Shown here piece by piece: positions 5,451 through 52,753 of a stretch of DNA of 64,000 bases. How positions within the stretch are numbered: the stretch's first letter is position 1; the number at the start of each line of letters is the position of its first letter. A program made the position numbers and the translations under genes. A model generated the notes under the pieces. That model did no database searches and was not told where the DNA came from. It saw only the letters and a program-made list of their open reading frames with translations. Location: NCBI GenBank assembly GCA_965215195.1, contig CBDCDC010000002.1, positions 4,320,001 to 4,384,000 of the forward strand. Reading direction: 5' to 3'. Origin of the DNA: Candidatus Latescibacterota bacterium. Its GTDB lineage: Bacteria; Latescibacterota; UBA2968; UBA8231.

Positions 5451-6034
5451 TCTCCTGTGGATGTAGGTGAATTGTCTGGGCGTCCGGTCCGCGGCGGCTG
5501 GCCATGGTTCAACTTGAATATATCGAGTGAGCCTGTAGAGTCGAGGCTGGCCTGTTGGTATTGTTGCAAGTGGCGCAAATTGGCTGCATAGGCTTCTTGG
5601 GCGGGGTTGAGGGCCTGCGCCCGGCCGTAGAATTGAGCGGCTTTGTCGGTCATGCCGAGCCGCTCGTAGATGACCCCGAGGTTGTTGTGCAGGCTGGCCG
5701 ACAAGCTGTCTTGCGCTAGGGCGCGCTCCAGGTGCGACTGGGCCTCGTTCCACATGGCGTTCTCAATGCACCAGAGCGCGTATTTGTTGACCTGCTCGAT
5801 GTTTTGCAACTGCTGGCGCGAGCGCTTGGGGCGATCTACGACGACTAGCACCGGCGTGGGTTGCACGGCTGCCGCGCTCGCGGCCGTGGTGTCGGCGGCA
5901 CTGACTCGCTCGTAGCCGATGGGTGCGCCCGCTGGCGGCCGGCGCACCAGATCTAGACAGCCGTGCAGACACAGCGCACCCAAGCCAAAGGCCACGAGGC
6001 GCAAGGTGTTTTTCAAGGAGCCATTCACGCGCAA
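5447..6034 (-). CDS. TPR lipoprotein
   Basis: Lipobox LHGC; HNNLGVIYERLG TPR motif. Confidence 0.75.
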   Translation of the reverse strand: MRVNGSLKNTLRLVAFGLGALCLHGCLDLVRRPPAGAPIGYERVSAADTTAASAAAVQPTPVLVVVDRPKRSRQQLQNIEQVNKYALWCIENAMWNEAQSHLERALAQDSLSASLHNNLGVIYERLGMTDKAAQFYGRAQALNPAQEAYAANLRHLQQYQQASLDSTGSLDIFKLNHGQPPRTGRPDNSPTSTGE

Positions 6035-24804: not shown

Positions 24805-24843
24805 CGGCGAAGCAGTAGAGTTTTCACAGAAATTATAGCATCC

Positions 24844-34500: not shown

Positions 34501-36255
34501 CTATCCAAAAGAGAGTTGCATCTGTTGATCATCTGGTCGAGTGCGAATAGATTGAGAGGAATTTTCAGTCATTCCTTTATCGCCAATGGCACTACACACT
34601 TCTCCCCAGTCGATGAAGTATTCGTCAAAATAGCGAACTGGATATTTACTGAATCTAATAATGTCCTCTCTATCGGGCCTGCGTCCCAGTTTGATAGCAA
34701 TCTCCTTGACTTCGATCTGTAGTGTTTTTTTAGGCACTTCGTACTTCTGTTTTTGTAGTCTTGCAACTCTACTGTTCTTTGCTTTTGGAGTAGTACCATT
34801 TTTTGCAAACGGATCCCTCCCTTTTTGCAGGTCTAAATGTCTCTGTTCGGCAATTGCATGATATTTAGCCGACAGTTCAATTCCAATGAATTTTCTTCCA
34901 AGCATCTCTGATGTTAAAGTCGTTGTACCTGCGCCGTTAAAAGGATCTAAAACGAGATCTCCTTCTTTGGTAAAGGTATGGATAAGTCGCTTCATCAGTG
35001 ATGGAGGTAGTTGACATGGATGATCAACTCTTTTTGAATTGTGCTTTAGCCTATGGATATCCCACCACAAATTTCCAATCGGCTGTCGGTCTGTAATTTT
35101 GTTTATATTTCTTTTTTTGATACAAGAGGTTCTAACGCAATACCATGGTTTGAGGCTCATGAAGTTTTGGGGAGTTCGCCAACTAGCTTTCTTTTCGTGA
35201 TTGGCAATTTCAATTGGCCGACCTTTACTAAAGCAAATTATTCCATAATGTGCCGGCATAATTTTTCTGATGGGTAAGCTCAATCCCTCCCAAACTATCC
35301 AATCTTGGTAATATAAAATGCTTCTCGCGAACGAAAAATGCCTGACGATCCAGAGAGGAATATTTATAATTGCAAGAGTCCGACTGGGTTTCAAAACTCT
35401 AGCTGATTCAGCTATCCATTGATCACACCATGAAAAGTAATTACTAATATCTTGGGCATCATTCCAGTTATCATATTTCTTTTTTATATTATATGGAGGA
35501 TCAGCAAAAATAAAATCTACGGAATTTTCAGGGATAGTTTTGAGGATATCTAAACAATCTCCGTTGAGTAAACGACTCCTGCCGGGGTTATTAATTATTC
35601 CGTTTGAAGAGCGGAATTTTCTCTTTTTGGAGAATGTAAGAAAGTTCCTGACATCGCAGTAAATAAGTTGGCTATAAGGTTCGTGCCCAAAGAGATCCGC
35701 TAGTCTTTCCAGAATAGCTCTTGGTGCTGTATCATTATCATAAGAAATATCGCGCCAAATATCAGACATAAGAGTCCCATAGGGGCTATAAATATGTTTC
35801 TTACCTCCGTAGTCCTTTGTTGTTTTGTTGCAGGCAGGACAGTACGTATATTCTATTTGAGTCTTGTTATGCTTCAAAGAACCCTTGTAACGGGTAAAAA
35901 CTAAGAGAGCAATATGGCCATCTGGCAAGGCCCCCAATCGCAGTATCTCTTGTTTGCGTTTGACAGCAATCCAAAGTTTGAAATAGACGCGGTTCTGAAG
36001 TTTTTCTATTATATAGCAAGCTATGTGAGGATTTGTCAAAAAACAAATTGTACTTTCTGCGGGCAATTTTTCAAGAAAATCATCGAAACCTTGCTTAAGA
36101 AATTCCACAGAAACTTTATCGTCGAGACCAATTTCTGTAGTCAAATGGAAAAGCCATACATCCGGCCGTAGTGACTTTGGCGATAATTTTTGAAAATTTT
36201 CAAATGTCCTTATTGATATATCTAAGGACTTGCAGTTTTCACTCCGGTGAGCCAT
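34501..36255 (-). CDS. Beta-class N6-adenine DNA methyltransferase with N- and C-terminal extensions
   Basis: FADPPY, HPCQLP and LDPFNGAGTT motifs; AT-rich DNA. Confidence 0.9.
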   Translation of the reverse strand: MAHRSENCKSLDISIRTFENFQKLSPKSLRPDVWLFHLTTEIGLDDKVSVEFLKQGFDDFLEKLPAESTICFLTNPHIACYIIEKLQNRVYFKLWIAVKRKQEILRLGALPDGHIALLVFTRYKGSLKHNKTQIEYTYCPACNKTTKDYGGKKHIYSPYGTLMSDIWRDISYDNDTAPRAILERLADLFGHEPYSQLIYCDVRNFLTFSKKRKFRSSNGIINNPGRSRLLNGDCLDILKTIPENSVDFIFADPPYNIKKKYDNWNDAQDISNYFSWCDQWIAESARVLKPSRTLAIINIPLWIVRHFSFARSILYYQDWIVWEGLSLPIRKIMPAHYGIICFSKGRPIEIANHEKKASWRTPQNFMSLKPWYCVRTSCIKKRNINKITDRQPIGNLWWDIHRLKHNSKRVDHPCQLPPSLMKRLIHTFTKEGDLVLDPFNGAGTTTLTSEMLGRKFIGIELSAKYHAIAEQRHLDLQKGRDPFAKNGTTPKAKNSRVARLQKQKYEVPKKTLQIEVKEIAIKLGRRPDREDIIRFSKYPVRYFDEYFIDWGEVCSAIGDKGMTENSSQSIRTRPDDQQMQLSFG

Positions 36256-36256
36256 T

Positions 36257-37291
36257 TTAGTTACCTCCTTCCATAGTTTCTGCTAGACGTCTAATATCGC
36301 CGTCACTAAGATTGATGATACAGTCGCTGTACTTGATTAAGTTCTTCACAAAAGAGCGGCGTTCAAAATTGCCAGCACCATCAACTACATACGCAATTTT
36401 ATGCCCTTTTTCACGAAGAAGCCTTTGTCTATCAGGAGCGGATTGAGCTTTCCTTTCTACTACACTGTTTGTAGTAAATTGAAAACTCACTTCAATACCC
36501 CAATAATTACCATTAGGACTTTTACCGACGATGTCAAATTTTGTATCTGTTCTACCTTCGGTCTGGCTGATGCTTGGAATCGTGGTTTGTGAGAAATCCC
36601 AACTCGGGAGATATTGAGCCAACCGCTCTTTTACATAATTCTGAGCGAGGTAACCCATCCTGTTGGACGTTGCACCTCCAGTAATTCGACTAACTAAGAT
36701 ATATCTTTCTTTAATATATTTTTCCAACCTTGGTTTGTCGCCAATCATTGAACCAATAATACATTTGTCTTCGATTTCCTTTGGTAAAAAATCATTCGTT
36801 GACAAACCACCAAATAAAATCAGGGTACTTACGTCAACAATAGAGTCTGTAAGGTCAAAACGTTGCTGGATTCCCTCTCCGTCAAGCCCTAAGCTGGGAT
36901 TACTCCACCTTCTGCCACAAAAAAGAGATTTCATCTCGTAATCGTAATTTTTGCCACGAAAGGTGAATTTGAAATTCTCGTACTTAAATTTTTCTGGAAG
37001 CTCTGCTGCAAAGCGTTTTAAGTTTTCTCCGCTGATATCGGATAAAATGCAAAGATGTTTTAAAAAAAGATTTGGATAGAGATCTTCAACAAAACCTAAA
37101 ATCTTAGTCCAATCATAAGGAGCTTTATATCCAAGTTGGAGCATACTTATAAAACTATCTTGCGTTTTAAGAAGCAGAGGGATAATACTAGAATTCTTCT
37201 CTTGCTTGGCGATTTCAGATGGCCAATAGATTACAGCATTTTCCTTCAGTTCTTCTACTGTTTCAGGATTAGGCATTACCAGATTCTCCAT
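36257..37291 (-). CDS. Type II restriction endonuclease (PD-(D/E)xK-like)
   Basis: FD...IEVSFQ.TTNS..ERK and VVDGAGN motifs; directly upstream of the methyltransferase; AT-rich. Confidence 0.75.
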   Translation of the reverse strand: MENLVMPNPETVEELKENAVIYWPSEIAKQEKNSSIIPLLLKTQDSFISMLQLGYKAPYDWTKILGFVEDLYPNLFLKHLCILSDISGENLKRFAAELPEKFKYENFKFTFRGKNYDYEMKSLFCGRRWSNPSLGLDGEGIQQRFDLTDSIVDVSTLILFGGLSTNDFLPKEIEDKCIIGSMIGDKPRLEKYIKERYILVSRITGGATSNRMGYLAQNYVKERLAQYLPSWDFSQTTIPSISQTEGRTDTKFDIVGKSPNGNYWGIEVSFQFTTNSVVERKAQSAPDRQRLLREKGHKIAYVVDGAGNFERRSFVKNLIKYSDCIINLSDGDIRRLAETMEGGN

Positions 37292-39281: not shown

Positions 39282-41104
39282 TAGACTAGGTGCTCCATGA
39301 TGTAGTCGCGGCGTTGCGGGGTGTTTCTACCCATGTAAAAGGAGAGGGTCTGCGGCACGGTGTCTAGCGAGCGCACAGCGACCTTGACCAAGCGCATGTC
39401 GCCGTTGATAAACTGCCCGAATTCCTTGGGGGAGATTTCGCCCAAACCCTTGAAGCGAGTGACCTCGACGCTGCCCTTGAGCCGGTTCTCGGCGCGCTCG
39501 CGCTCGCGCTGGTCGTAGCAATAGAGGGTCTGGCGCTTGTTGCGCACCCGGAAGAGCGGGGTCTCCAAGATGTAGAGGTGGCCGCTGGTCACGAGCTCCT
39601 CGAAGTACGTGAGGAAGAAGGTCATCAGCAAGGTGCGGATGTGGAAGCCATCTTCGTCGGCATCCGTGGCCAAGATGACGCTGTCGTAGCGCAGATTTTC
39701 CACGTCCTCTTCAATGCCCAGCGCCATCATCATGTTGTACAGCTCTTCGTTTTTGTAGATGGCGGCGCGGGTTTTGCCACAGAGGTTTTGCGGCTTGCCC
39801 TTGAGGGTGAAGATGGCTTGGGTCTCCGGGTCGCGCGAGGAGACGATGGAGCCAGCGGCCGACTGACCCTCGGCGATAAAGATCATGGAATCCTCTCCGC
39901 GCTTCTTGTCGCCTTTGTGGTACTTGCAGTCCTTGAGCTGGGGAATTTTGATCTCAATGCGGCGCGCGGCCTCCTTGGCTTCCTTTTTAACTGCGTTCAG
40001 CTCCTTGCGCAGCTTCTCATTGTGGATGATGCGCGCTTCGAGCTTTTGCGCGGTCTCCCGATTTTTGTGCAGGAAATCGACGATGGCTTCGCGGGTCTCG
40101 TTGACGATCCAGCCGCGGACGTCGGTATTGCCCAGCTTGTTTTTGGTTTGCGACTCGAAAATCGGCTCCTTGACCTTGACGGCGACGACGCCAAAGGCCC
40201 CATCGCGGACATCGACGCCGTTGAAGGTTTTCTTGTAAAATTCGTTGACGCCCTTGAGTACGCCTTCGCGGAACGCGCTCTGGTGGGTGCCGCCGTCGGC
40301 CGTGTACTGGCCGTTGACAAAGGAACGGTAGGACTCGCCGTAGCTATGGACGTGGGTGAGGGCAAATTCGAGGTATTGGCCCTTGTAGTAAGCGGGCGGA
40401 TAGAAAACCGAGTCGCCGGCTTCGCTTTTGAGGAGGTTGAGCAGGCCCTGTTTGGACTCGAATTTTTGGCGGTTGAAGTACAGGCGCAGGCCCTGGTTGA
40501 GGCAGGCGTAGTTCCACATCCGGCGCTCGACGAACTCGTGGTTGAAGGCGAATTCGCCAAAGATGGCCGGATCGGGCAAAAACTCGACGTACGTGCCGTC
40601 GGGCGCGTTGGGCGCTCGGCTCTTCTTTTGCTTTTTCAGCTCGCCGCGCTCAAAGAGCACTTCGGCGCACCGGCCGTCGCGGTAGGAGCGGACAGCGAAG
40701 TGGGCCGAAAGCGCGTTGACGGCCTTGGTGCCGACGCCGTTAAGCCCCACGCTGAACTGGAACACATCGTCGTTGTATTTGGCACCGGTGTTGATGACCG
40801 AGACGCACTCTACTACCTTGCCGAGGGGAATGCCGCGGCCGTAGTCGCGGACCTTGACCCGCCCCTTGTCGATCTCGACGTCGATCTGCTTGCCACAGCC
40901 CATGATGAACTCATCGACGGCGTTATCGACGACCTCTTTGAGCAAGATGTAGATGCCGTCGTCGGAATCGTCCCCCGAGCCGAGGCGGCCGATGTACATG
41001 CCGGTCCGCAGACGGATGTGTTCAAGCGAAGAGAGGGTCTTGATCTTGCTTTCGTCGTACGTGGCCTTGCCGTTGGCGCGGCTGTTGATCAGAGTCTTGG
41101 CCAT
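39281..41104 (-). CDS. parE: DNA topoisomerase IV subunit B
   Basis: EVVDNAVDE, DYGRGIP, GLNGVG, EGQSA, TDADEDG and RFKGLGE motifs. Confidence 0.9.
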   Translation of the reverse strand: MAKTLINSRANGKATYDESKIKTLSSLEHIRLRTGMYIGRLGSGDDSDDGIYILLKEVVDNAVDEFIMGCGKQIDVEIDKGRVKVRDYGRGIPLGKVVECVSVINTGAKYNDDVFQFSVGLNGVGTKAVNALSAHFAVRSYRDGRCAEVLFERGELKKQKKSRAPNAPDGTYVEFLPDPAIFGEFAFNHEFVERRMWNYACLNQGLRLYFNRQKFESKQGLLNLLKSEAGDSVFYPPAYYKGQYLEFALTHVHSYGESYRSFVNGQYTADGGTHQSAFREGVLKGVNEFYKKTFNGVDVRDGAFGVVAVKVKEPIFESQTKNKLGNTDVRGWIVNETREAIVDFLHKNRETAQKLEARIIHNEKLRKELNAVKKEAKEAARRIEIKIPQLKDCKYHKGDKKRGEDSMIFIAEGQSAAGSIVSSRDPETQAIFTLKGKPQNLCGKTRAAIYKNEELYNMMMALGIEEDVENLRYDSVILATDADEDGFHIRTLLMTFFLTYFEELVTSGHLYILETPLFRVRNKRQTLYCYDQRERERAENRLKGSVEVTRFKGLGEISPKEFGQFINGDMRLVKVAVRSLDTVPQTLSFYMGRNTPQRRDYIMEHLV

Positions 41105-41671
41105 TGTTTCTAATAATATAGTAGAATGAGCCGCGCCTCAGTGGGGGAGGGACGCGACTGGCGGACAATGGGAGCGATTAAAATGAAGGAGAAAACAGAA
41201 GCATAGGAGGAGAGCAGAAGGGGTAGCCACTCTCCTTGGTGCAACTGCTAGTTCAAGAAATTCTCCGTTTGCTTAATATAGTGAACATAAATGCAGTTGT
41301 CAATCAAATGCAGGTGTGGGCAGAAGCGGTGATTTAGCGACTTTGCTGTATCTTTTGGGAACGGTAGTGTTACAGAGGTGATACACTTTGGCGTATCGAC
41401 TGGTTGGAGCGGAAGCTGTGGCGACAAAAAATCTGGATTGGCTAACCTACCTAATTTCAAGGAGTTAGCGAATACCAACGACGGCTCAGTCTATCTGGTG
41501 TGCTTCTTGGCACGTTTTTCGCTTTTGTTCCCGCTGAGGCCGAGACCTCAGTCGTGCTTCAAACCATCTTCAACTAGAGGTATATTTCAATTGCTCGCAT
41601 CTATAAGAGAAAGATTGGCATCAAGGTTATTGTGGTGGAGCAGTGGCCTCAGAAGATCCTCGGAAACCAAT

Positions 41672-44059
41672 ATGTTGGACCGTAGCACATTATCTATTCT
41701 AGTCCTATTCCATGGATGTAGCTCCGTTCATACTAGACGAGCTTGTGAGATCGCCCGACAATTACGACACCGAGGCTACGAGGTTCGGCTAGCAGGAGAT
41801 GGGCCTTATGCGGAGCAATTTTCCCAAAAGGGAGAAGAAATATGCAGTGTTGAAACATTGCCTCTAGATATTCACCGAGACCAGACTGAGCTATTGGACT
41901 ATAGGTCGTGCGATACTGAATGGATCGATTCTTGCGTAAAATCCGAACGGTCTTTGATTGAGGAGTACAAGCCCGATCTAATTATACACTCCTTGAAACC
42001 AACGGCTTCAGTTGCAGCATATTTGGAAGGTGTTGACGAAGTTGAAATAATCCAAGGATACGATCAACCAGGCGGTCATCTTCCTCTTCAGACCCTATCT
42101 GTACTACCATCGCGAGATACGTTTGCAGAATACTTAAAAAGCAAAGTCTGCGAAATCAAAAAAAGAAATAAGTACTTCCTAATCGCCGATATACCCGATC
42201 TATATCCTACACTAGAGTTTAGTGCTAGTGGATTCCATTATATAGGACCTCTTTTGCCAGCCATGAGAAAAAAAAGAGACGGACGGAAGGTGATTCGCAA
42301 ACGGGGTACACCATTTCCTACCGTCTATATAAAGGATCCCAAAAATCTCCTAAGAGAAGATATACTTAGACAAGTTGAGTCCGGGACAAAGATGCCTTAT
42401 CGCTTACTAGTAGAATCTACCAGAGGAGTAAAATGGTCTAAAAGCCGTGTAGAGTTTGTCGACGAAAGATATAGAGAGCCACCATGGGAAAGAATACGTA
42501 TAATAGTTGGAGATTTAGATATAGAGACTCTATACAGTGCTTTATCTCATGGAGTTTTGCCTGTCGGTATAGCTACTACTTTAGACCAAGAGCTCCATCT
42601 CGATAGACTCGAAGCAGTTAATCTGGGTTTCAAGATAGATCCAGATATGTTTAGCTATCATATTGTTACACAAGCAGTAGGAAAAATACTAGATACTTGG
42701 GATAAAATGGAGGTTCGATTAGAACACGTTGTTAAGATCTTGGAAAGATGGTATACAAAAGATGTCGTCGCTGACTGGGTAGATAATTATTTTGTGAACC
42801 GGCATACGGTACTCCGTTACGATCCCAGATTTCTAGTAAGCGAAAACGAATTCTTACAGCAACTCGACGGCACTACTCCCTCCACGCTATCAATTGAGTC
42901 ACTACGTAAAATGCTACAGCAAGGTATTCAAAGAGGAATACCTCACTGGCGACAGGGCAATCAGTACTTCTTCGACATAATAGATTCTTGGAACTGGCTT
43001 TACGAAAAGGAAGATCGATTTTTCGAGGCTGAATACAGAGCCTGTGATCAAAGGCGGAGTACCTTCTTCGATATAGATGAAATGGGCAACATACGTTCAA
43101 AATCTCATATTCAACGCTATAAAGTAACCTACTCTTACGACATACACCTCACTGAAAAATCGGATCAACAGTTAAGAGCTTTTATACCATATCCTTTAGA
43201 GACAGAAGAACAAAAGGCAGTTAATCTAATTAGCTGTTTCCCAGAGGATATGAGAGACTATTTACGCGGCAAGTTTGGATTCTTCTACGCGTACCCTTTC
43301 ACTGCAAATTCGGCAAATTTTTCATATACTTGCGAACTTGAAGTCAGTAAGTACAATGCTAAAGGTAGGGGTGAGTACATCCTCCCAGAGTGGGAGAGAT
43401 CGAGATATTTGTACACCGGCGAAGGCTTGGCAAAACTTCCAGAGTTAGATCAAATGCTCTCTGAGATACTCGAAGCATCTGCGTCCTGTGATAAAAAAGA
43501 ACTAGCTTGGGCCTTCTACAGCAAACTAGTCAGAACCAAAAAATTCAGAAAGACTAAACCACCTGCGATGGGTCTAGTTGATAGTTCAGCTACCTTACTA
43601 AATAGTAGCGGTGGTAATTGTATTCACTTTGCCAGAACCTTTATATCTCTGTGTCGAATGGTAGGTATTCCTGCTCGGGAGAGATGTGGAACCTTGTTAG
43701 GATACCCAATTTCTGAAAAGGTGTACGAATACAGCAGTATAAACGAGCCTATAATAGGCCACACATGGGCCGAAATCTACCTAGAAGAAGCAGGCTGGAT
43801 ACCCGTCGAATTCCTCAGTGTGGCTATCGGCGAAGTTTCTATAAACGAATACAATATCAAGGATCCTAAATTAAAAAAATATATAAAGCAAAATAATCGC
43901 TCTTTTGAATCTTATTATTTTGGCCATTTAGATAACCAACGACTCATGTTTTCCAATTCTGTGAAGACACTACCTCTATGCTTAACAAAAGGTGTGGATG
44001 AATGGGAACCTCTTCCAAACATACAATGCCAATATCGTATGAGAGTGGAGTGCATATAA
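41672..44059 (+). CDS. Fusion of GT-B (GT1-like) glycosyltransferase and transglutaminase-like domain
   Basis: N-terminal H..R...IARQLRHRGYEV, KPDLII, YIGP and LDQ; C-terminal GGNCIHFA..F..LCR..GIPAR, GHTWAEIY and GWIPVE. Start moved to ATG 41672. Confidence 0.8.
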   Translation: MLDRSTLSILVLFHGCSSVHTRRACEIARQLRHRGYEVRLAGDGPYAEQFSQKGEEICSVETLPLDIHRDQTELLDYRSCDTEWIDSCVKSERSLIEEYKPDLIIHSLKPTASVAAYLEGVDEVEIIQGYDQPGGHLPLQTLSVLPSRDTFAEYLKSKVCEIKKRNKYFLIADIPDLYPTLEFSASGFHYIGPLLPAMRKKRDGRKVIRKRGTPFPTVYIKDPKNLLREDILRQVESGTKMPYRLLVESTRGVKWSKSRVEFVDERYREPPWERIRIIVGDLDIETLYSALSHGVLPVGIATTLDQELHLDRLEAVNLGFKIDPDMFSYHIVTQAVGKILDTWDKMEVRLEHVVKILERWYTKDVVADWVDNYFVNRHTVLRYDPRFLVSENEFLQQLDGTTPSTLSIESLRKMLQQGIQRGIPHWRQGNQYFFDIIDSWNWLYEKEDRFFEAEYRACDQRRSTFFDIDEMGNIRSKSHIQRYKVTYSYDIHLTEKSDQQLRAFIPYPLETEEQKAVNLISCFPEDMRDYLRGKFGFFYAYPFTANSANFSYTCELEVSKYNAKGRGEYILPEWERSRYLYTGEGLAKLPELDQMLSEILEASASCDKKELAWAFYSKLVRTKKFRKTKPPAMGLVDSSATLLNSSGGNCIHFARTFISLCRMVGIPARERCGTLLGYPISEKVYEYSSINEPIIGHTWAEIYLEEAGWIPVEFLSVAIGEVSINEYNIKDPKLKKYIKQNNRSFESYYFGHLDNQRLMFSNSVKTLPLCLTKGVDEWEPLPNIQCQYRMRVECI

Positions 44060-46572
44060 TGGACATAAGTGTAATTGTAGCCACATATAATCAGAAAGAA
44101 CGTCTCCGTCTCGTGTTGAGAGGTTTAGAAAGTCAGAGTATTCCAAACGATCACTTTGAAATACTAGTGGTTGACGACGGTTCAACAGACGGTACTGGAG
44201 CAATGCTGAAATCACTGAAGATGCAGAATCTCGAAGTTGAATCTTTTGAAACGAACCAAGGCCGCTGCCGAGCACGGAACAAAGGAATTGAACGGGCACA
44301 TGGTTCGTTAGTCGTTTTTTTAGATGGAGATGCATTACCGGCTCCGAATCTACTCCAGTGCTACTTAGAAGCCTATAAAGAGAATGGTCAGAAATCAGTA
44401 TTTTGTGGGTACCAGTATGTCCTTCCCAATCTAGAGTATTTCCAAGATCCTCAGACAGGTTCTCTCTTGGATATCTCGCTGCCTTATTCACTGCGTCGGC
44501 ACTTGGCTCTACATCGAGATAAGATGATTGTCACAGAGGATATGGTATGCAATGAGTTCGATAGTATTATTGAAAAAGCAGTAGAAGGAGGCTATCCGTT
44601 TGAAGCAGTTCGTACTATGCAGCGAGAATCTCTCGATCTTTACGAAACTGTCGCAGAACCGGCACTAGGCTGGATTGGATTATACCCTCACAATGTGGCC
44701 ATACCGTTAAAGCTACTAGAAAAAGTAGGGAAATTCGATGATACCATACCTTTTTGTGAAGGATGGGAACTTGGCTATCGCCTAAAGGCGGCAGGTGGAC
44801 AATTTATCAGTGTCCAAGCCTCTTCTTACCACCTATACCATCATCATAATTTCTCCGATCCTGAGAAAGCAAAAGCCGAAAGAGTGAAGCGATATGCTGC
44901 GGTTGAGTACATAGCCTGCAAACATAGCGACCCCTTGGTGCGTCTGATCCACTTCTGGTGGGCACATCTGTGGCCTAATCCTTTTCTTCCAGAGGAGTCA
45001 GTTATAGACAGTCTGATTGAATTTGACCATATCTACCGAACTATTTCTGAAACAGATAGAAAAGAATACCAAGAGATCCTAGATGCACTTCCACAGCTTG
45101 ACCTAGATACCGAGCTTCCTGCTCATTGCAAATTTAGCTCTGCTGAAAGTAATGTATCCGAACTAGTTGACCAGCAAGATGGTCCTGAAGAATGGGAAAT
45201 CATTTTAGCCTCTGCTGACGAGCACTGGCAAAACGGTCGTCTAGAATCCGCCTTATCCCAAATCGAACTAGCAAAAGAAGTTAACCGTCTTCGGGGTGGT
45301 ACAACTATAGGATTAGCTAACATACTGATCTCCCAAGGCAAAGTTTACGAGCTGAAAGGCGAATTAGACAAGGCAAATCAATGTTATGATGAGGCCATAT
45401 CAATTTTTTCACAAACTGAGGATGATGAGAGTACAAGGAAGCTAGCTGTAGGATATACCTGCAAAGGGTTTATCACACAGCTACAAGGAAATCTCACTGA
45501 GGCTGCTGATTTTTATATAAAAGCACAGAGCCTTAACAAAAAAATAAATTGTCGAGAAGATTATGCCTTAGTTACTAGCAACTTGGGTACTGTGCATTTA
45601 CTAAAAGGCGACTTGAATTCAGCAGAGAAACTTTACGAGGAATCTATAGCTATTTACAAAGAAATTGGAGACTCCGAAGGAATTGCTAGCCAGTACAATT
45701 CACTTGCAAATTTAAGAAAAATTCAAGGCCGTATTTACGAAGCACGTACTCTACTGGAACAGGCTATTGGTATAGATAAAAAGATGGATAGAAAAGAGGG
45801 ATTGGCATTGCATTATGGATTATTTTCCTCGATACACCTTCTAATGGGAAATATGGAAGAAGCACTAGAGTGCGGCAAAGCTGCTTTAGAAGCTAATCAA
45901 AGCTTGGCGGATGAAAAGGGAAAAGCGTACTCATATAGAATACTAGCGAATGTGCATTTCTATCGTGGGGATTTTCCTCTGGCAGAATCTTATCTGCATC
46001 ATTCTATAAGCCTATTTGAACGTATAGGTATGTCATCCGATGTGATTGAGTGTTATTTATCTCTTGGAAAATTGTACGCTCATAGTAAAAAATTTGATAA
46101 AGCCAAGGAATTCCTATGCAATTACCTACGCCTTGCTCCAGACTCGCCTAACCAGCAAACTATTGCTGCAGCCCGAGCTACTTTAAGTCTCGTATATATC
46201 CAATGCGGACAATATGAAGACGCGTACCAAGAGCAGAAGACTGCACTGGGGATATACGAAGCCGAGGACGATGAAAAGGGCACCGCCTACGGATTTGCTA
46301 GTCTAGGCGAGATACATCAGCTTAGAGGACAATGGATTGAAGCAGAATCTTGTTATAGTAGAGCTCTGTCTATATGCAAGAAGATAGGTGACGAACTCGG
46401 ACAAGGGCTTGCCTATATGGGGATGGGAGATGTGGCTGCCCAAAAAGAGTCAAAAGCAAGAGCTGTCGCTTTGTGGACGATGGCATCAAAAATTTTCGCC
46501 GGAATGAATATGTATAACTACGCTGACCGAGTCGAAGAAAAGATAAAGACTGTTCAAGGATCAGAACTATAG
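44059..46572 (+). CDS. GT2 glycosyltransferase with long C-terminal TPR array
   Basis: SVIVATYN, VVDDGSTD, ARNKG and FLDGD motifs; repeated NLG/A...Y..A TPRs; TAATG coupling to the upstream gene. Confidence 0.88.
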   Translation: MDISVIVATYNQKERLRLVLRGLESQSIPNDHFEILVVDDGSTDGTGAMLKSLKMQNLEVESFETNQGRCRARNKGIERAHGSLVVFLDGDALPAPNLLQCYLEAYKENGQKSVFCGYQYVLPNLEYFQDPQTGSLLDISLPYSLRRHLALHRDKMIVTEDMVCNEFDSIIEKAVEGGYPFEAVRTMQRESLDLYETVAEPALGWIGLYPHNVAIPLKLLEKVGKFDDTIPFCEGWELGYRLKAAGGQFISVQASSYHLYHHHNFSDPEKAKAERVKRYAAVEYIACKHSDPLVRLIHFWWAHLWPNPFLPEESVIDSLIEFDHIYRTISETDRKEYQEILDALPQLDLDTELPAHCKFSSAESNVSELVDQQDGPEEWEIILASADEHWQNGRLESALSQIELAKEVNRLRGGTTIGLANILISQGKVYELKGELDKANQCYDEAISIFSQTEDDESTRKLAVGYTCKGFITQLQGNLTEAADFYIKAQSLNKKINCREDYALVTSNLGTVHLLKGDLNSAEKLYEESIAIYKEIGDSEGIASQYNSLANLRKIQGRIYEARTLLEQAIGIDKKMDRKEGLALHYGLFSSIHLLMGNMEEALECGKAALEANQSLADEKGKAYSYRILANVHFYRGDFPLAESYLHHSISLFERIGMSSDVIECYLSLGKLYAHSKKFDKAKEFLCNYLRLAPDSPNQQTIAAARATLSLVYIQCGQYEDAYQEQKTALGIYEAEDDEKGTAYGFASLGEIHQLRGQWIEAESCYSRALSICKKIGDELGQGLAYMGMGDVAAQKESKARAVALWTMASKIFAGMNMYNYADRVEEKIKTVQGSEL

Positions 46573-46627
46573 TGTAATATCATAAGGCGATACCTTCGCA
46601 AAAGGCGAGTAATAATTCCTATCAAGT

Positions 46628-47173
46628 ATGACACTTTGTAAAAGTAAATTAACAATTGGAGCGGCTATAATATTAGTCATTTTTTTTGCTGCTACCTTGC
46701 AATTAATCGCCGTGTTCGTTACGAATGAAAGCATATACCGTAACGCGATGGCGTGGTTGAAAGGTGCGGAATACGAAGGAACGGAAGGAGTCGTTCTACA
46801 GACACGTAAGATGAATTGTGGTCCTGCATCTCTTAAAATGGTCTTGGATAGCCTAGGTATAGACCAAGAACTTACAGATATTGAAGACATGATTAGATTG
46901 GACGAGACAGGTTCTTCTTTATTCGACTTGATGAAATACGCCGAAAGTCAAGGAGTACATGCTGAAGCTTGGAGGCTAAATATAGATGACCTAGAGAGCA
47001 AACCACTTCCTGTGGTAGTCTTTATTGAGGATGATCACTTTGCTGTGCTGGACCAGATCAACGAACACGGTGAGGTCATCTTGCGAGATCCAGCCATCGG
47101 CAGGCTCAGAATTAGGAAATGGGCATTCAACCGTATATGGAAAGGAGAGACTTTGATATTGACAAAAAAATAA
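46628..47173 (+). CDS. Stand-alone C39 cysteine peptidase with N-terminal TM anchor
   Basis: LQ....NCGPASL, HFAVL, DPA.G and F...WKG motifs; no ABC domains. Confidence 0.88.
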   Translation: MTLCKSKLTIGAAIILVIFFAATLQLIAVFVTNESIYRNAMAWLKGAEYEGTEGVVLQTRKMNCGPASLKMVLDSLGIDQELTDIEDMIRLDETGSSLFDLMKYAESQGVHAEAWRLNIDDLESKPLPVVVFIEDDHFAVLDQINEHGEVILRDPAIGRLRIRKWAFNRIWKGETLILTKK

Positions 47174-47175
47174 AA

Positions 47176-47579
47176 CATTCACCATGTGGAGGTAGGGGTT
47201 GTCATCTTCTCTTTTAAGAAAGGAGAACATCATGACCAAACTTATCAACACGAAAGGTGTAACAGCTCTGGCGACAGCCTTGGGCTTATGCGCCTACAGT
47301 ATCGCACCTAGCAACAGTGCCATCATCTCCAAGCCTATTACGCCTTCTGAGGCTCGGGACATCAAGGGTGGCATTCTCCCTTGGGCACTGGTAGGTTGGG
47401 CCATAGCAGCTGACGTCGCACTCACAGTTGGTGCGATGTCCCTTTACGGGAATCTAGAGACTTCAAGGCAACAACGAGAAGGATCTTACGCCCGCAACCC
47501 GTAAGAAGACTGAAAAACAACAAACAAAACCTGTAAGAAGCTAACCTAGGTGAAACCCGCAACCTCTACATGGTGAATG
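47176..47579. repeat. About 29-nt imperfect inverted repeats (47176-47204 and 47551-47579) flanking the precursor gene
   Basis: CATTCACCATGTGGAGGT versus reverse complement CATTCACCATGTAGAGGT (17/18 match), extending imperfectly. Confidence 0.85.
47232..47504 (+). CDS. Double-glycine RiPP/bacteriocin-like precursor with an additional signal-like N-terminus (90 aa)
   Basis: AGGAG SD; ITPSEARDIKGG leader motif; hydrophobic core; lies next to the C39 peptidase. Confidence 0.8.
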   Translation: MTKLINTKGVTALATALGLCAYSIAPSNSAIISKPITPSEARDIKGGILPWALVGWAIAADVALTVGAMSLYGNLETSRQQREGSYARNP

Positions 47580-47582
47580 GAC

Positions 47583-47620
47583 GAGCTACCAGTCTTTTCA
47601 TCGAGACTGGTAGCTCAAAA
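47583..47620. terminator. Perfect 13-bp hairpin (terminator or mRNA stabiliser)
   Basis: GAGCTACCAGTCT...AGACTGGTAGCTC followed by AAAA. Confidence 0.65.
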
Positions 47621-47821
47621 TCTTCGCTAACTAAGAGAAGGACTCTACGACTTTGAATGCCTTAGTGTTTCTTTTAGGGATGATTCAGCCTATCGCCTAT
47701 AAGGCGAGGGTCGCTTTAGTTGGGCTGAATGGTCTTTTGCATGTTGAGCAATTTTCGGTGTCATGCTATGGACTATGAGGTTTTACCACACTATCTTAAG
47801 GTATTGGTTCGGACTTGAGGG

Positions 47822-48661
47822 GTGTACTTCAAGCATTTAGAAGAGGCAGGTGTACTCATGAAAAAAATCCGTACAATGGACCAACACATTTATCCCTTAT
47901 TTACCAGAAAGTTTGAAAATATACGATGTAGGACATTTTCTACCTTTCTACTAGCTATTTTTATGTTCTTCTTTTTTCGCTATACTGTCGATACTATACT
48001 TAATCTATTCGCTTTGAGCGACTACCTTCTCATATTATTATGTACTATTCCTTATGTTTTACTTATTTTAATTGTCGTGGCATTCTCTAAGATAGAGAAA
48101 CAGGATCTGACCATCCAAACCTTGGGATTATCCCCTCAAATTCCCAGAAGATCAAAAAGATTCGTTTTGACGTTTATTTTTTTATCGTTAGTATCCGGAG
48201 TAGGTATATTGGTCTTTTTCCTTTACATGAAGCTCCAAGGGATTGATATCCACTTAATACACCCCAACCCTACTCTAATACCTTGGACTGAGGAAGCCGA
48301 CTGGGATGAAAAATTTCGTACTATATTTCTCCTTATTATTCCATATTCAGTTCGTGCTTTATTGATTGCCCCTGTTATAGAGGAGGCATATTTTACAGGC
48401 CTGATTTTCCCTGCTCTAAGGAATCGATTGGGGTTCGTTCTCGGCTTCACTATTACCGCTTTTCTCTTCAGCTATCACCATTACTCTCCGTTTTTAGAAG
48501 GACATCTAAGGGAATTTATCATTATGTTTATGTCACAAAGTCTTTCATTTTTTTTCTATCAGGGTACGCGCTCTCTTTATCCTTCTATAATATACCATTC
48601 TTTACGCAATATGTCAGTTTTGGCTATTGAACTCTCAGCCTTTATCCCAACTCAGTCCTAA
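47822..48661 (+). CDS. CPBP/Abi (CAAX-like) intramembrane protease, possible immunity factor
   Basis: APVIEE..F.G, F...HH and SIIYHSLRN motifs; start uncertain. Confidence 0.85.
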   Translation: MYFKHLEEAGVLMKKIRTMDQHIYPLFTRKFENIRCRTFSTFLLAIFMFFFFRYTVDTILNLFALSDYLLILLCTIPYVLLILIVVAFSKIEKQDLTIQTLGLSPQIPRRSKRFVLTFIFLSLVSGVGILVFFLYMKLQGIDIHLIHPNPTLIPWTEEADWDEKFRTIFLLIIPYSVRALLIAPVIEEAYFTGLIFPALRNRLGFVLGFTITAFLFSYHHYSPFLEGHLREFIIMFMSQSLSFFFYQGTRSLYPSIIYHSLRNMSVLAIELSAFIPTQS

Positions 48662-48786
48662 TTAGCACAGGAAAAACCTTCGGTGCCGTTTTAAGCTTAT
48701 GGTTAGTCTAGTATATATCAAATACGTTCTTAGTGAATACGATGTTATGAAAATAAATCCATCTCTTTTAATAAGGAGGATAACTC

Positions 48787-49488
48787 GTGGAAGCCGCACT
48801 CCAGACTGAAATCGGCCTCGTCGGCCGCATGATCCGGATCTTCTACGCACCCAGCAAGACCTTTGAATCCTTCGCTCATAAGCACAGCACTGCCGACTGG
48901 CTTATGCCCGCCATTCTGAGCACCGTAGTTGCCACAATTGCTGCCGTGCTCGTCATGCCCGTCACGACTGAGTTCAATCAGGAGGCCATACAACAGCGTA
49001 TTCAGGGTATGTCTGCTCAACAGCGAGAGGCAGTAGAGCAATCCCAAATCGAGGGTATGATACAGGCCATTACGCTGATCTCCACACCTATTGTGCTTTT
49101 CATTTTTCTTTTTCTTTTTGCCGCGTCTTGCCTACTGATGGGCAAATTACTCGGCGGCCTACTCTCCTACGGCCAAGTCCTAACCATCGTAGCCTATGCG
49201 GGGTTGATCGCTATTCCCCAACATATTGTCAAGACATTGCTAATATTGGCCAAAAAGACACCGATGGTGCAAATGGGCTTGGGGGTGTTCCTCTCCGAAG
49301 AGGCCCTACAAAGCTTCAGTGGTCGCTTATTGTCTCTCATTGATCCCTTTGTCGTTTGGAGCGTTGTGATTACTGGTCTCGGTCTGTCCATTGTCGGACA
49401 GTTCGATCGCAGCAAAGCCTACACTGGGATTGGTGTCATAATGATTGTTTGGTTTTCCTTCGCTGCTGCCCTAGGTAGTATCGGCTAG
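48787..49488 (+). CDS. YIP1-family membrane protein
   Basis: IFYAPSKTF and IDPFVVW motifs; about five TM segments; AGGAGG SD. Confidence 0.8.
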   Translation: MEAALQTEIGLVGRMIRIFYAPSKTFESFAHKHSTADWLMPAILSTVVATIAAVLVMPVTTEFNQEAIQQRIQGMSAQQREAVEQSQIEGMIQAITLISTPIVLFIFLFLFAASCLLMGKLLGGLLSYGQVLTIVAYAGLIAIPQHIVKTLLILAKKTPMVQMGLGVFLSEEALQSFSGRLLSLIDPFVVWSVVITGLGLSIVGQFDRSKAYTGIGVIMIVWFSFAAALGSIG

Positions 49489-49711: not shown

Positions 49712-51946
49712 ATGAATAAAAGATGCACCGCTCGACAGGCCGAGATCGTCCTGTTCTGCGTTTCCTTACTCGCTGGGCAGACCTTTGCCCAGAGCAAGGC
49801 TTTCGTACAGGGGCAGGTCGTCGACGAAACCGGACAGCCGGTCGCCTTTGCCAACGTACAAATCATCGACACTACCGACGGCTCAGTAACAGGCCGCGAC
49901 GGCCGTTTTGTCTTTTCTACCCGGCACCTTGGATCACGCGACCTGCACGCCACCTTCATCGGCTTTGAACCTGCCCGGCAGACCCTACACTTGATCGCGG
50001 GCGACACCACACTGGTGCGCTTGGTGCTGCGGCACTCCCTCATTGAACTCGGTGAAACCGTCGTCACAGTTAGCACCTACACCACCGGGGAGGATGAGAC
50101 CGTCACCCTCTCGCCTTTAGATGTATTGACGACGCCTGGGGCTTCGGCCGATATTTTTCTCGCGGTCAAAACCTTTCCCGGCGTTGCTACCGTACATGAC
50201 GGTGCCGGTCTTTTTGTCCGCGGGGGCGACGTGAGCGAGACCGTCGTTTTGCTCGATCAAGCTACGGTGGTGCATCCCTACAGATACGAATCGCCCACCG
50301 GCGGAGTATTCGGCACGATTCCCTCCTTTATGGTGCAGGGCACGGTTTTTTCCACAGGTGGATTCTCCGCCCGCTATGGCAATGCGCTTTCCGCGGTGCT
50401 GTCCATGGAGAGCCTAAACATGCCCGTGCAACGGAGCTATAGGCTCGGTTTGGGCCTCGCTGCCGGCTCTGTGGGCCTCGACCTGCCTCTTATTGACGAT
50501 AAGCTTGGCCTGCGCTTTACGGGCAATCGCAGCTTTACCGATCTCATGCTTCGCGTCAACGGTCACCGCAGCGAATTCACTACCACTCCACGCGGCCACG
50601 ACGGCAATCTCAACCTAGTGTACAAATACTCACCGACCGGACGCCTCAAACTCTTCAGCTTCAACGCGGGCGACCGAATCGGTGTGCGCGTGGTCGAGCC
50701 TTCGTTTGACGGCCAGTACCGAGACCGTACCGATAACTACTTGCACAATGTTCAGTGGACGGATGTATGGGCCGATTGGTTCATCCAGACCAGTGCCTCG
50801 CTCAACCGGCACACGGCCCGGCGGCAGTTGGGCAGCCTAGACCTGACCCCCCGCGACTGGACCGGCAAAATTCGCACGGACTGGGAACGCGCGCTCGGAG
50901 CTTTCGGGATCATGCGCCTCGGTACCGAACTGGAGCACGCTGACAACAGCTTCGTGGGCAGCATTCCTCAGGACGATGTTCTCGACCCCGAGGCAGAGAC
51001 ATTTGAACTCGACACTTCCTACAGTGCCCGGCGCACTGGTGCCTACTTTGAGGTTGATTTCAAGCCCGGGCGTCGCATCGTCGCCAATGTCGGTATGCGC
51101 GCCGACCACCACAGCTTGAGCGACGATTTTGTCCTAGACCCGCGCCTGTCTGCGCGATACCAGTTTTCCGCGAACACAAACGCTCGGCTCGCTTGGGGCA
51201 TCTATCACCAATTCCCCGCCCCATTTGAATACAACCCCACCAGCGGCAACCCCAATCTAGGGCCCCAACGCGCCCAACACTGGGTAGGCGGCTTGCACCA
51301 CGAACGCGGACAATTCCTAGTACGGCTGGAGGCTTACTACAAACCCTACCGCAATCTCGTCCTGGATCACCCCGACCTAAACCTTGCAAACGCGGGTAAA
51401 GGCCGGGCTTCTGGTGTTGACCTCTTTTGCAAGTACGGCGCTTTTCTCAATACGCGCTTGAGCGGGTGGATAGCCTACAGTCTGCTGCGATCGCGCCGAT
51501 TGCAGGTGCGCCACCTAGGGTTTGAGATGCTCCGCGAAGAAGCTCCTTCTCCGTTTGATATTACGCACAACCTGACCTTGGTCACAAAGGGGCAGATCGT
51601 CTACGCCCTCAGCGGCGGCCTGACTCTGAGATACGCCACCGGACGCCCCATCACCCCAATCGTCGATGCCGTTTCCGTAGCAGATAAAAGCTACTACCTG
51701 CCCGTAGAAGGACCTGTCGGCTCAGAACGGCTGCCGTCCTTTCAACAGATAGATGGGCAATTGAGCTACGTGCATTTCTTTGGCAGCGGTCACCAAGCGG
51801 TCTTCTACTTGGCGGTCAACAACCTGCTCAACCGCGCCAATGTGCTCGACTATGATTACAGCATCGACTATGCTCAGCGCCAGCCACGCACCGCCATCTT
51901 TCGCCGCTCCATTTACTTTGGCACCACCGTCTCTCTGAACTATTGA
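49712..51946 (+). CDS. TonB-dependent receptor with N-terminal carboxypeptidase-regulatory-like domain
   Basis: GQVVD..G.PVAFANV, LFVRGG, FSTGGFSARYGNALS and PRLS motifs; terminal aromatic residue. Confidence 0.9.
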   Translation: MNKRCTARQAEIVLFCVSLLAGQTFAQSKAFVQGQVVDETGQPVAFANVQIIDTTDGSVTGRDGRFVFSTRHLGSRDLHATFIGFEPARQTLHLIAGDTTLVRLVLRHSLIELGETVVTVSTYTTGEDETVTLSPLDVLTTPGASADIFLAVKTFPGVATVHDGAGLFVRGGDVSETVVLLDQATVVHPYRYESPTGGVFGTIPSFMVQGTVFSTGGFSARYGNALSAVLSMESLNMPVQRSYRLGLGLAAGSVGLDLPLIDDKLGLRFTGNRSFTDLMLRVNGHRSEFTTTPRGHDGNLNLVYKYSPTGRLKLFSFNAGDRIGVRVVEPSFDGQYRDRTDNYLHNVQWTDVWADWFIQTSASLNRHTARRQLGSLDLTPRDWTGKIRTDWERALGAFGIMRLGTELEHADNSFVGSIPQDDVLDPEAETFELDTSYSARRTGAYFEVDFKPGRRIVANVGMRADHHSLSDDFVLDPRLSARYQFSANTNARLAWGIYHQFPAPFEYNPTSGNPNLGPQRAQHWVGGLHHERGQFLVRLEAYYKPYRNLVLDHPDLNLANAGKGRASGVDLFCKYGAFLNTRLSGWIAYSLLRSRRLQVRHLGFEMLREEAPSPFDITHNLTLVTKGQIVYALSGGLTLRYATGRPITPIVDAVSVADKSYYLPVEGPVGSERLPSFQQIDGQLSYVHFFGSGHQAVFYLAVNNLLNRANVLDYDYSIDYAQRQPRTAIFRRSIYFGTTVSLNY

Positions 51947-51967
51947 CCTTAACCAAAGAGGCCACTT

Positions 51968-52753
51968 ATGCGACGCGTTCTGCTCTCACTAATTTTCATT
52001 TTCTCGCCCGCTTACTCCGCCTTCGCCCAATCGGTTGACAGTCTTCTCGTCAGTGGAAAACAGATGCTGGAAGCCGGTGAAAACGAGCGTTCCCTCGATG
52101 CGATGTATGCGGCGCGGGCGATGTTCGAGCGCACCTTAGCCGATACCAGCTTGGCCGCGTGGGGACACTACTACATCGCCTTGGCCGATTACCGCATCGT
52201 CGACCTCCTATTAGCCGCAGGCAAAAAAAACAAAGACGCGGCTTCTGAGCATCTCAAAGCCGCTGTCGAGCATTTGCAAGAGGCCACCCGGCTCGATCCT
52301 CAAGCCGCCGAAGCTTATGCTCTGCTGTCGAGCGTGTACGGACGACAGATCGGCCTCAACCCGGTCAAGAGCATGGTCTTGGGCTCCAGAGTAGGGAAGG
52401 CCATCAAAAAAGCTATGCAGCTCGCCCCCGACAATCCGCGTGTGGTGCTGAGCGCGGCCATCAGTGATTTCAATACCCCCAAAATGTTCGGTGGAAGCAA
52501 AGAAGAGGGCCTGCAAGGATTCCAGCGTGCGGCCGAACTATTCGCCCAAGAAGAGCCGACCGATCCCATCCACCCCGCATGGGGACACAGCCGCACGTAC
52601 GCTTGGCTCGGCATCGCTTACCAGGACCGCGGCGAACTGGAGCAGGCGCGAGCGGCCTTTGCAAAGGCGCTTGAAATCGATCCAGATTTTGGTTGGGTCA
52701 AGTACGTGCTGCTGCCCGAATTGGAGAAAGCCAATTCACCGGATGCGCCGTGA
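51968..52753 (+). CDS. Secreted TPR protein
   Basis: Signal peptide ending AFA; PDNPR and PAWG motifs; TPR helices. Confidence 0.8.
   Translation: MRRVLLSLIFIFSPAYSAFAQSVDSLLVSGKQMLEAGENERSLDAMYAARAMFERTLADTSLAAWGHYYIALADYRIVDLLLAAGKKNKDAASEHLKAAVEHLQEATRLDPQAAEAYALLSSVYGRQIGLNPVKSMVLGSRVGKAIKKAMQLAPDNPRVVLSAAISDFNTPKMFGGSKEEGLQGFQRAAELFAQEEPTDPIHPAWGHSRTYAWLGIAYQDRGELEQARAAFAKALEIDPDFGWVKYVLLPELEKANSPDAP

Follow-up and report, generated by a model that had tools for sequence, protein, structure and literature searches.

Within a 64,000-nucleotide stretch of a Candidatus Latescibacterota genome (contig CBDCDC010000002.1 of assembly GCA_965215195.1, positions 4,320,001 to 4,384,000; hereafter the window, whose coordinates we use unless another locus is named), the forward strand carries a short gene, P0001 (47232–47504, 90 amino acids plus stop), 58 nucleotides (nt) downstream of the end of a gene for a stand-alone C39 cysteine peptidase of 181 amino acids, P0002 (46628–47173, forward strand). 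An earlier note on this DNA had read the small protein as a precursor with a two-stage leader, a Sec-like signal peptide followed by a double-glycine (GG) site, exported by Sec and then activated outside the cytoplasm by a C39 peptidase; the protein it described is the exact 90-residue translation of 47232–47504. Our analysis ties this GG precursor to the adjacent C39 gene, and in four phylum-level groups the same layout is found again next to C39 genes whose products stand alone and are anchored. All sequences compared here derive from metagenomes or metagenome-assembled genomes (MAGs).

The precursor has three parts, as the note had proposed, and every element quoted there, from the initial MTKLINTK through hydrophobic residues 9–25 and PSNSA to KGG at residues 45–47, is found in the translation. 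Residues 1–24 (47232–47303, forward strand) resemble a Sec signal, with K3 and K8 ahead of the hydrophobic stretch and an end that is approximate; residues 25–47 (47304–47372, forward strand) form a pro-segment with a double-glycine leader, the most conserved part of the family, in which the motif runs S33-K-P-I36-T-P-S-E40-A-R-D-I44-K-G46-G47; and residues 48–90 (47373–47501, forward strand) constitute a predicted mature peptide of 43 residues, in which a Gly/Ala-rich hydrophobic helix with small-xxx-small spacing (48–72) is followed by a polar tail ending SYARNP. This core contains a QQ pair and no lysine, as previously stated; the pair, Q80–Q81, is incompletely conserved, Q81 varying among homologues. 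An AlphaFold model of the peptide, of modest confidence (pLDDT 66.5), places helices at residues 2–22 and 38–45 (the latter short) around a coil at 23–37, and a further helix at 48–88 after a break at the GG.

P0001 is a real gene, as judged from its Shine–Dalgarno sequence, a downstream hairpin, its homologues and its substitution pattern. The sequence AAGGAGA (47220–47226, forward strand) lies 5 nt before the ATG, and a perfect 14-base-pair stem-loop (47583–47616, forward strand), possibly a terminator or attenuator, lies 79 nt after the stop codon; its predicted energy of −34.1 kcal/mol (z −5.2) was equalled in 0 of 200 shuffles, and a terminator scan did not flag it because it has no T-run. 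Across the window, that scan and a promoter scan returned counts not above those of shuffled sequence (promoters 19 versus 15.0, terminators 12 versus 11.2). Eight homologues with 68–98% identity were found in a large protein collection. Five relatives came from a profile search of 1.84 billion representatives; one was already among the eight, and the other four were new and more distant. In the four orthologous DNA copies (those of the window and of loci L001, L002 and L003, described below), the ratio of nonsynonymous to synonymous polymorphism (pN/pS) is 0.25 for the signal-like segment, 0.20 for the pro-segment and 0.39 for both core and tail. P0001 is thus translated and under purifying selection, with the tightest constraint in the leader. 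The gene is present as a single copy in the window. The ESM Atlas holds nothing scoring at least 0.9 for P0001 and no usable match for P0005, and no Rfam family was found in the window.

Among the nine close sequences, residues 1–47 are nearly invariant and the hydrophobic stretch 48–72 is variable, an insertion or deletion falls directly after the GG, and the last eight residues, EGSYARNP, are again invariant. Widening the alignment to 15 sequences leaves P26, S33, P35, I36, T37, E40, A41, G46 and A52 as invariant columns, with I44, K45, G47, P50 and D61 nearly so. The alignment of homologous precursors, which had been put forward as a check on the GG, finds it in 14 of the 15 members and G-A in the remaining one. 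In P0036, the most distant member, the N-terminal sequence diverges while keeping its basic–hydrophobic–polar (n-h-c) form. The family is therefore defined by its pro-segment and not by its signal or its core.

One metagenome representative, P0034 (121 amino acids), contains two tandem modules of pro-segment, GG and core behind one signal-like segment, and may be either a multi-core precursor or an assembly artefact. Its repeat begins at the residue equivalent to A25, which would put the module boundary where the signal should end. At the middle of the hydrophobic core, 14 of 15 members also have an acidic residue, Asp or Glu (D61 in P0001, 47412–47414), an unusual feature in a membrane-active helix. 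A lipobox has Gly, Ala or Ser at −1 before an invariant Cys; in P0001 the residue before C20 is Leu, and C20 is Phe in P0036, and a lipoprotein reading was dropped.

The leader motif and the neighbouring C39 peptidase

The published C39 recognition consensus is Leu(−12)-X3-Glu(−8)-Leu(−7) with Val at −4; the last 13 leader residues suffice for recognition, and GG, GA and GS are all accepted (PMC6363468). The pro-segment ITPSEARDIKGG fits this register, with a hydrophobic residue at −12 (I36), Glu at −8 (E40), a hydrophobic residue at −4 (I44) and then G46–G47; A41 at −7 is a weak counterpart. A search of the 794 window open reading frames (ORFs) of at least 25 amino acids (67,068 amino acids in all) with the pattern [ILMVF][ST]xxE[LMA]xx[IVLA]xG[GAS] gave a single match, in P0001, as compared with 0.06 matches per replicate after the residues of these ORFs were shuffled.

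P0002 is a C39 peptidase by sequence (Pfam PF03412, 97.4 bits against a gathering cutoff of 22), with Q58, C64, H137 and D154 at the catalytic positions and a membrane anchor at about residues 8–32. C64, H137 and D154 do not vary in either of our C39 alignments, and Q58 is invariant in the 19 close members and kept in at least 90% of a wider set of 22. Its structural model (pLDDT 86.2) consists of a long N-terminal helix (2–32) followed by the C39 fold, and Foldseek matches it best to the leader-bound structure of LahT150 (6mpz; E 9e-12, root-mean-square deviation 1.3 Å over 128 columns, TM score 0.85 on the target), the protein that is also its best match by sequence in the PDB. The peptidase is not fused to an ATP-binding cassette (ABC) protein, and a scan of 42 long window ORFs detected no ABC transporter domain; the window contains just one C39-type motif. 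Against the NCBIfam model of FapD, a stand-alone C39 protein (NF058616), P0002 scores 42.8 bits, well short of the cutoff of 330, and no Fap proteins were found at its locus. A word-indexed collection contains 64 clusters of the anchored C39 family at E ≤1e-10, all under generic names.

Prediction of a complex between C39 residues 40–181 and peptide residues 26–62 scored 0.52, as against 0.02 for the best of three controls. Of 157 solved complexes, 116 pass the same mark, as do 2 of 215 mismatched pairs; passes with scores of 0.60 or below come from only 18 of the solved complexes and from both of these mismatches. At least 73% of contacts agree between runs, and the partner's pLDDT is at least 59. 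As C39–leader complexes have already been solved (6mpz, 6v9z), the pass may reflect likeness or memory only, and we take it as weak support for the predicted pairing.

On which side of the membrane the peptidase domain lies can be approached through the family as a whole. An anchor-like window of 19 residues is present in 18 of the 22 family C39 proteins, preceded by N-terminal tails that are short (5–13 residues in most) and densely basic; lysines and arginines total 77 in the tails, as against 45 over the 15 residues that follow the anchor, with an N-side excess in 16 of the 22, parity in 4 and a deficit in 2. A short basic tail followed by a hydrophobic anchor favours an extracytoplasmic C39 domain. 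Crude, position-independent insertion sums came to −2.6 for the C39 anchor and to +1.9 and +3.9 for the two hydrophobic segments of the peptide, a result that fits, but does not prove, a true anchor in the protease and a signal with a translocatable hydrophobic core in the peptide. There is precedent for such a location in FapD, an active periplasmic C39 protein (PMC5557850).

Recurrence in other genomes

A C39-alignment scan, with one genome per species, identified 30 loci (L001 onwards). Closest to the window are two from Latescibacterota, L001 and L002, whose C39 proteins are 88% and 85% identical to P0002, and one from a MAG titled Poribacteria, L003, at 76%; all three have orthologues of the peptide. 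In L001 and L003 the gene order is that of the window, namely a glycosyltransferase (GT)/transglutaminase-like gene, a GT2 gene with tetratricopeptide repeats (TPR), C39, peptide, CPBP and Yip1, and in L002, to which no Pfam scan was applied, the ORFs match the window cassette in length and position. Loci L004–L015, from Bacteroidota and Ignavibacteria, contain 13 further anchored-C39 genes with 29–52% identity, and in 11 of these a small ORF with a signal-like N-terminus and a GG-type leader follows at about 90–740 nt. These ORFs begin M-[KR]-[KR] and continue with a hydrophobic stretch with AXA-type sites and with leader segments such as LSQVEMQIVAGG, MTQTEMSCAVGG and LSKSEMNCTVGA; their cores are Gly-rich or Cys-rich, with 2, 4 or 6 cysteines, and are unrelated to that of P0001.

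Across L001–L015, 14 of 16 anchored-C39 genes have the complete layout, with the ORF within about 60–740 nt, and two deviate: the precursor of L007 (4599–4892) has G-E in place of GG, and in L013 (9549–10033), a MAG contig with a header coverage of about 2.6, the signal-like part lies in a different frame from the leader and core. L011 holds two C39–peptide pairs. A strict rule applied to ORFs of 50–190 amino acids in L001–L015 (a basic n-region, a Kyte–Doolittle window mean of at least 2.0 and the motif [LIVMF]xx[LIVMFA]xG[GA]) selected 8 of 1026, all of which follow a C39 gene; peptides of the Latescibacterota type miss its hydrophobicity threshold. The pooled leader consensus of 21 rows, one of which (L015) is anchored on the wrong GG, reads S(−15)xP(−13)[ILM](−12)[TS](−11)xxE(−8)[MAL](−7)xx[IVA](−4)xGG. 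A weak match of the L015 peptide to BLB8/JUQZ-1 (E 0.0031), JUQZ-1 being the subject of papers on a bacteriocin of Brevibacillus, spans only the signal region and was dropped.

The Bacteroidota and Ignavibacteria loci share further neighbours. In 10 of the 12 loci the gene directly upstream of the C39 gene encodes an AhpC-TSA/Redoxin protein, and in 9 of these 10 the two genes overlap, mostly by 4 nt. The encoded proteins have a CxxC motif (CPHC or CEHC) in 9 of 10 cases and an anchor-like N-terminal window in 8 of 10 (the two ORFs in which it is missing had doubtful starts), and are TlpA/ResA-like, with ResA as the nearest NCBIfam model at a score far below its cutoff. Thiol–disulfide chemistry of this kind takes place outside the cytoplasm, and the coupling of these oxidoreductases to the C39 genes is the strongest indirect argument for an extracytoplasmic C39 domain in the same loci. 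Downstream in loci of this type are a protein of about 180 amino acids with a signal-like N-terminus and another of about 235 amino acids with a signal-like N-terminus and an aromatic C-terminus, resembling a small outer-membrane barrel; neither belongs to a Pfam or NCBIfam family. A Yip1/YknW-like protein is encoded in 8 of the 12 loci, and a DrrA-type ABC ATPase, multi-pass permease-like proteins and MauE/DoxX are each found in some.

Other matches of the scan are truncated or partial. A truncated anchored-C39-like ORF occurs in a Nitrosomonadaceae MAG (L016, 407–667), and L017–L029 contain weak, partial C39-like matches, 29–49% identical over 30–85 residues, in Woesearchaeota and Nanoarchaeota MAGs.

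The low-GC cassette and its surroundings

The peptide and peptidase genes lie in an island of low GC content (41000–48900; 0.36–0.48, as against 0.58–0.62 in the flanks) that spans the GT/transglutaminase-like, GT2-TPR, C39, peptide and CPBP genes, the GC content of the Yip1 gene being intermediate. A matching low-GC island is found in L002 (4000–11000 of that locus), and this composition suggests that the peptide cassette may have been acquired horizontally. In the window, the island sits between topoisomerase genes and housekeeping genes.

The forward-strand cassette opens with a protein (41378–44059, start probably further downstream) in which a GT-B-like N-terminal region precedes a transglutaminase-like core; its orthologues in L001 and L003 have 824 and 821 amino acids, and the core scores 54.1 bits in Pfam, with a PDB match to a protein-glutamine gamma-glutamyltransferase at only E 2.9e-4. 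It is followed by a GT2 glycosyltransferase with a long TPR array (44002–46572), syntenic in L001 and L003; at E ≤0.001 it has 50 sequence matches in the PDB, made up of polysaccharide-type GT2 enzymes and TPR proteins, none of them named as a glycocin enzyme. On our reading of their translations, both glycosyltransferase-bearing proteins start without a signal-like N-terminus, and any action on the peptide would therefore precede its export. The transglutaminase link and the glycosylation of the core that the earlier note had considered gain no support from these observations. Downstream of P0001 are a protein of the CPBP/Rce1-like intramembrane protease family (47822–48661, forward strand, start uncertain; Pfam PF02517, 45.9 bits), kept in L001 and L003 and with weak, below-cutoff NCBIfam matches to MrtS (E 1.7e-6) and MrtJ (E 7e-4), and a Yip1/YknW-like multi-pass membrane protein (48787–49488, forward strand; Pfam PF04893, 58.7 bits; 65.2 bits to the NCBIfam model YknW_fam, whose cutoff is 110).

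Beyond the Yip1 gene, the window has a TonB-receptor-like barrel (49712–51946) with a CarboxypepD_reg domain and no Plug-domain match, followed by a TPR protein (49712–52753 for the pair). Both have host-like GC content and are present in L001 and absent from L002, in which a DEAD-box helicase 93% identical to that of the window directly follows Yip1. The pair is thus an insertion or deletion beside the cassette and not part of it, and the idea that the barrel serves as the export channel of the peptide was dropped, given its host-like GC and its absence from L002.

Elsewhere, the window contains two restriction–modification modules, one with a BanI-type enzyme and an N6/N4 methylase (34501–37291, with a GC content of 0.38 at 36–37 kb) and one with an Mrr-type nuclease adjoining another methylase (23890–25962). 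On the reverse strand are a 1158-amino-acid protein in which Peptidase_MA occurs together with PD40 beta-propeller repeats and an Omp85 barrel (2277–5753) and a protein bearing a type IX secretion tail of the CHU_C kind (63136–63909), which fits a host of the Fibrobacteres–Chlorobi–Bacteroidetes (FCB) group.

A proposed processing route and its alternatives

From these observations we lean, by a modest degree, towards a reading in which P0001 would be exported by Sec and cleaved after Gly47 by the anchored, extracytoplasmic C39 peptidase, yielding a bacteriocin-like hydrophobic peptide of 43 residues. In this scheme, residues 1 to about 24 would act as a Sec signal, crossing the inner membrane and being removed by signal peptidase I, or would at least hold the chain at the membrane. 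The pro-segment, to judge from its motif, its adjacency to the peptidase and comparative genomics, would serve as a double-glycine recognition helix docking on the neighbouring non-transporter C39 protein. The N-terminal anchor of that protein would tether it to the inner membrane so that the catalytic domain lies on the outer face, and there it would cut after Gly47. The weakest steps are the last: the released 43-mer, a Gly/Ala-rich helix, would be membrane-active against competitors, and the co-transcribed CPBP and Yip1/YknW-like membrane proteins would protect the producer. CPBP proteins have been cited as possible bacteriocin self-immunity factors (PMC8692603), and YknWXYZ protects Bacillus against the SDP peptide (PMC4887032); the two proteins may give immunity here. 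A bacteriocin-like role is our best guess for the product, and a signalling or structural role is also possible. The six-gene cassette would belong to a wider, unnamed class in which a shared leader module and an anchored C39 protein are combined with unrelated cores.

Several observations weigh against this scheme. Neither P0001 nor any of the 18 peptides reaches threshold for a Pfam or NCBIfam family, and an antimicrobial action of the product is purely conjectural. Matches of three of four family peptides to TIGR03949, the class IIb bacteriocin model (lactobin A/cerein 7B), speak for a bacteriocin-like core (E 0.0064–0.067), but their scores stay below threshold (13.0 bits for P0001 and 16.3 and 15.4 for relatives, cutoff 21.5), and the fourth peptide has no match. 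The signal region is conserved among close homologues to a degree atypical of a mere signal peptide, and the passage of P0001 through our own n-h-c and (−3,−1) heuristic, which places candidate signal-peptidase sites after residues 21, 23, 27 and 29, is lenient, all 26 of 26 sequences passing. In the leader, position −7 is Ala, not Leu or Met. P0002 itself has equal numbers of lysines and arginines around its anchor (2 and 2), and its predicted topology therefore leans on the family trend. The window cassette has no redoxin, no core cysteine and no conserved outer-membrane component, and the presence in the island of cytoplasmic GT and transglutaminase-like genes is left unexplained. Finally, hhalign brings the leaders of the P0001 family into register with those of Bacteroidota, though weakly, at E 0.0016 and a probability of 16%, and with so low a probability we dropped leader homology across the two groups on this basis.

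The conserved signal-like segment and the cytoplasmic enzymes invite a different topology, a membrane hairpin in which an uncleaved signal-anchor and helix 48–72 would flank a periplasmic GG loop cut by the C39 peptidase, leaving a single-pass peptide whose cytoplasmic SYARNP tail could be the target of the GT2-TPR and GT/transglutaminase-like proteins. Such a hairpin, which would draw on two hydrophobic segments of 17–25 residues, on helices modelled at 2–22 and 48–88, on the invariance of EGSYARNP in the nine close members and on enzymes that start without signal-like N-termini and are syntenic in the window, L001 and L003 (with L002 ORFs matching the GT/transglutaminase-like genes in length and position), strikes us as unlikely in view of the insertion sums, which are positive for both segments and negative for the C39 anchor. 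Moreover, 14 of 15 sequences place Asp or Glu midway along the second segment, conservation of the tail does not extend to the distant members P0033–P0036, and in the Bacteroidota counterparts the signal-peptidase sites are of the classic AXA type and the cores are Cys-rich and look soluble. Those same cores, with the coupling of the C39 gene to anchored TlpA/ResA-like CxxC proteins, also make it improbable that the peptidase faces the cytoplasm, as in peptidase-containing ABC transporters (PCATs), with the hydrophobic N-terminus recruiting the peptide and an unlinked or neighbouring transporter exporting it. In the literature covered, all characterised PCAT proteases for GG leaders do act on the cytoplasmic face (PMC5557850, PMC6363468), P0002 has no charge bias, and ABC-type ATPase genes lie nearby in 4 of the 12 Bacteroidota/Ignavibacteria loci (L005, L007, L010 and L013); those ATPases are, however, DrrA/ABC-2-like, a type for protection and not for PCAT export, none of the 42 long window ORFs encodes an ABC transporter, the family shows a charge bias with short basic N-tails, and the precursors carry signal-peptidase-type sites.

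We give very little credence to the idea that the GG is not a protease site at all, the C-terminal region being a sorting signal for the CPBP protein or P0001 a small membrane protein beside a C39 peptidase with another substrate. The C-terminal 43 residues do resemble the tripartite form of a sorting signal (10.1101/2023.06.07.544157), and the CPBP neighbour has its MrtS and MrtJ matches, far below cutoffs as they are; yet the CPBP-cognate signals have an invariant motif cysteine (10.1101/2023.06.07.544157), whereas P0001 has none after residue 20. NCBIfam returned no GlyGly-CTERM or other sorting-domain match to P0001 at E up to 10, a passenger of 23 residues would be implausibly small, the register of the motif is that of C39 recognition, and the leader precedes cores without a helix and basic tail in 12 other C39-linked ORFs, at loci without a CPBP gene.

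Returning to Sec export followed by C39 cleavage, the proposed route combines features of systems that are otherwise separate. Like the GG-leader systems of PCAT/AMS ABC transporters (class II bacteriocins, class II microcins and many ribosomally synthesised and post-translationally modified peptides; LahT, ComA and PCAT1), it has their leader register, protease fold and catalytic residues, and the same pairing of a conserved leader with a variable core; unlike PCAT substrates, P0001 has some 24 signal-like residues ahead of its leader, and the protease is an anchored protein of 181 residues predicted to act outside the cytoplasm, not a domain of an ABC exporter. Sec-dependent class II bacteriocins resemble its predicted form in their N-terminal n-h-c signal and small hydrophobic product, and differ in that the signal-peptidase cut yields the mature peptide, whereas P0001 would retain a conserved GG pro-segment of 23 residues; the statement of the earlier note that Sec-dependent bacteriocins normally lack GG sites agrees with a 2025 survey in which GG and Sec leaders are alternatives (PMC12648112). 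SDP (SdpC) of Bacillus subtilis is itself a Sec-exported pro-peptide that needs further processing, and to our knowledge involves no C39 peptidase and no GG leader. A further likeness to the SDP system is the Yip1-type protein YknW, which takes part in protection there (PMC4887032) and to which the protein encoded here scores below cutoff.

Closest in the placement of the protease is FapD of the Pseudomonas Fap amyloid system, a stand-alone C39 protein that works in the periplasm on Sec-exported partners and whose catalytic cysteine is required (PMC5557850). In that study the FapD substrate is given as unknown, the Fap proteins as lacking canonical GG leaders, and the FapD-type C39 class as yet to be characterised (PMC5557850); the candidate substrate here, by contrast, carries a canonical leader and adjoins the protease, at a locus without fap genes. 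The P0001 system would thus be GG-leader chemistry in recognition and cleavage and FapD-like in the site of the protease, all of its mechanistic steps being read from sequence. Our literature search found no account in which a Sec signal is followed by a GG leader. For stand-alone C39 proteins that are anchored or periplasmic and paired with such substrates it yielded FapD alone, and it brought nothing usable on FilB.

Taken together, the loci raise the possibility, which we hold tentatively and rate nearly as likely to be right as wrong, of a two-step route as yet unrecognised in FCB-group diderms and their neighbours: export by Sec, after which an anchored, extracytoplasmic C39 peptidase would remove, independently of PCATs and type I systems, a leader that acts as a portable module, S-x-P-[ILM]-[TS]-x-x-E-[MAL]-x-x-[IVA]-x-G-G. 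The same tentative claim holds that this module is shared across phyla ahead of unrelated cores and moves horizontally, and that in Bacteroidota the C39 peptidase teams with the TlpA-like oxidoreductase, the secreted protein of about 180 amino acids, the barrel-like protein and Yip1. If this is true, precursors with Sec and GG elements in series and a free-standing, anchored C39 peptidase would be missed or mis-cut by mining pipelines, since mining tools, like textbooks, take a GG leader with a PCAT and a Sec signal as alternative ways of exporting unmodified bacteriocins (PMC12648112). The loci described here would also supply the first clear enzyme–substrate pairs for periplasmic C39 proteins, of which FapD is the only studied case (PMC5557850). 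For the release of peptides in the periplasm or outside the cell, the system would offer a protease domain that is small and soluble and a tag that is short and portable, and Latescibacterota and Ignavibacteria, both poorly explored, would become sources of hydrophobic or disulfide-rich peptides.

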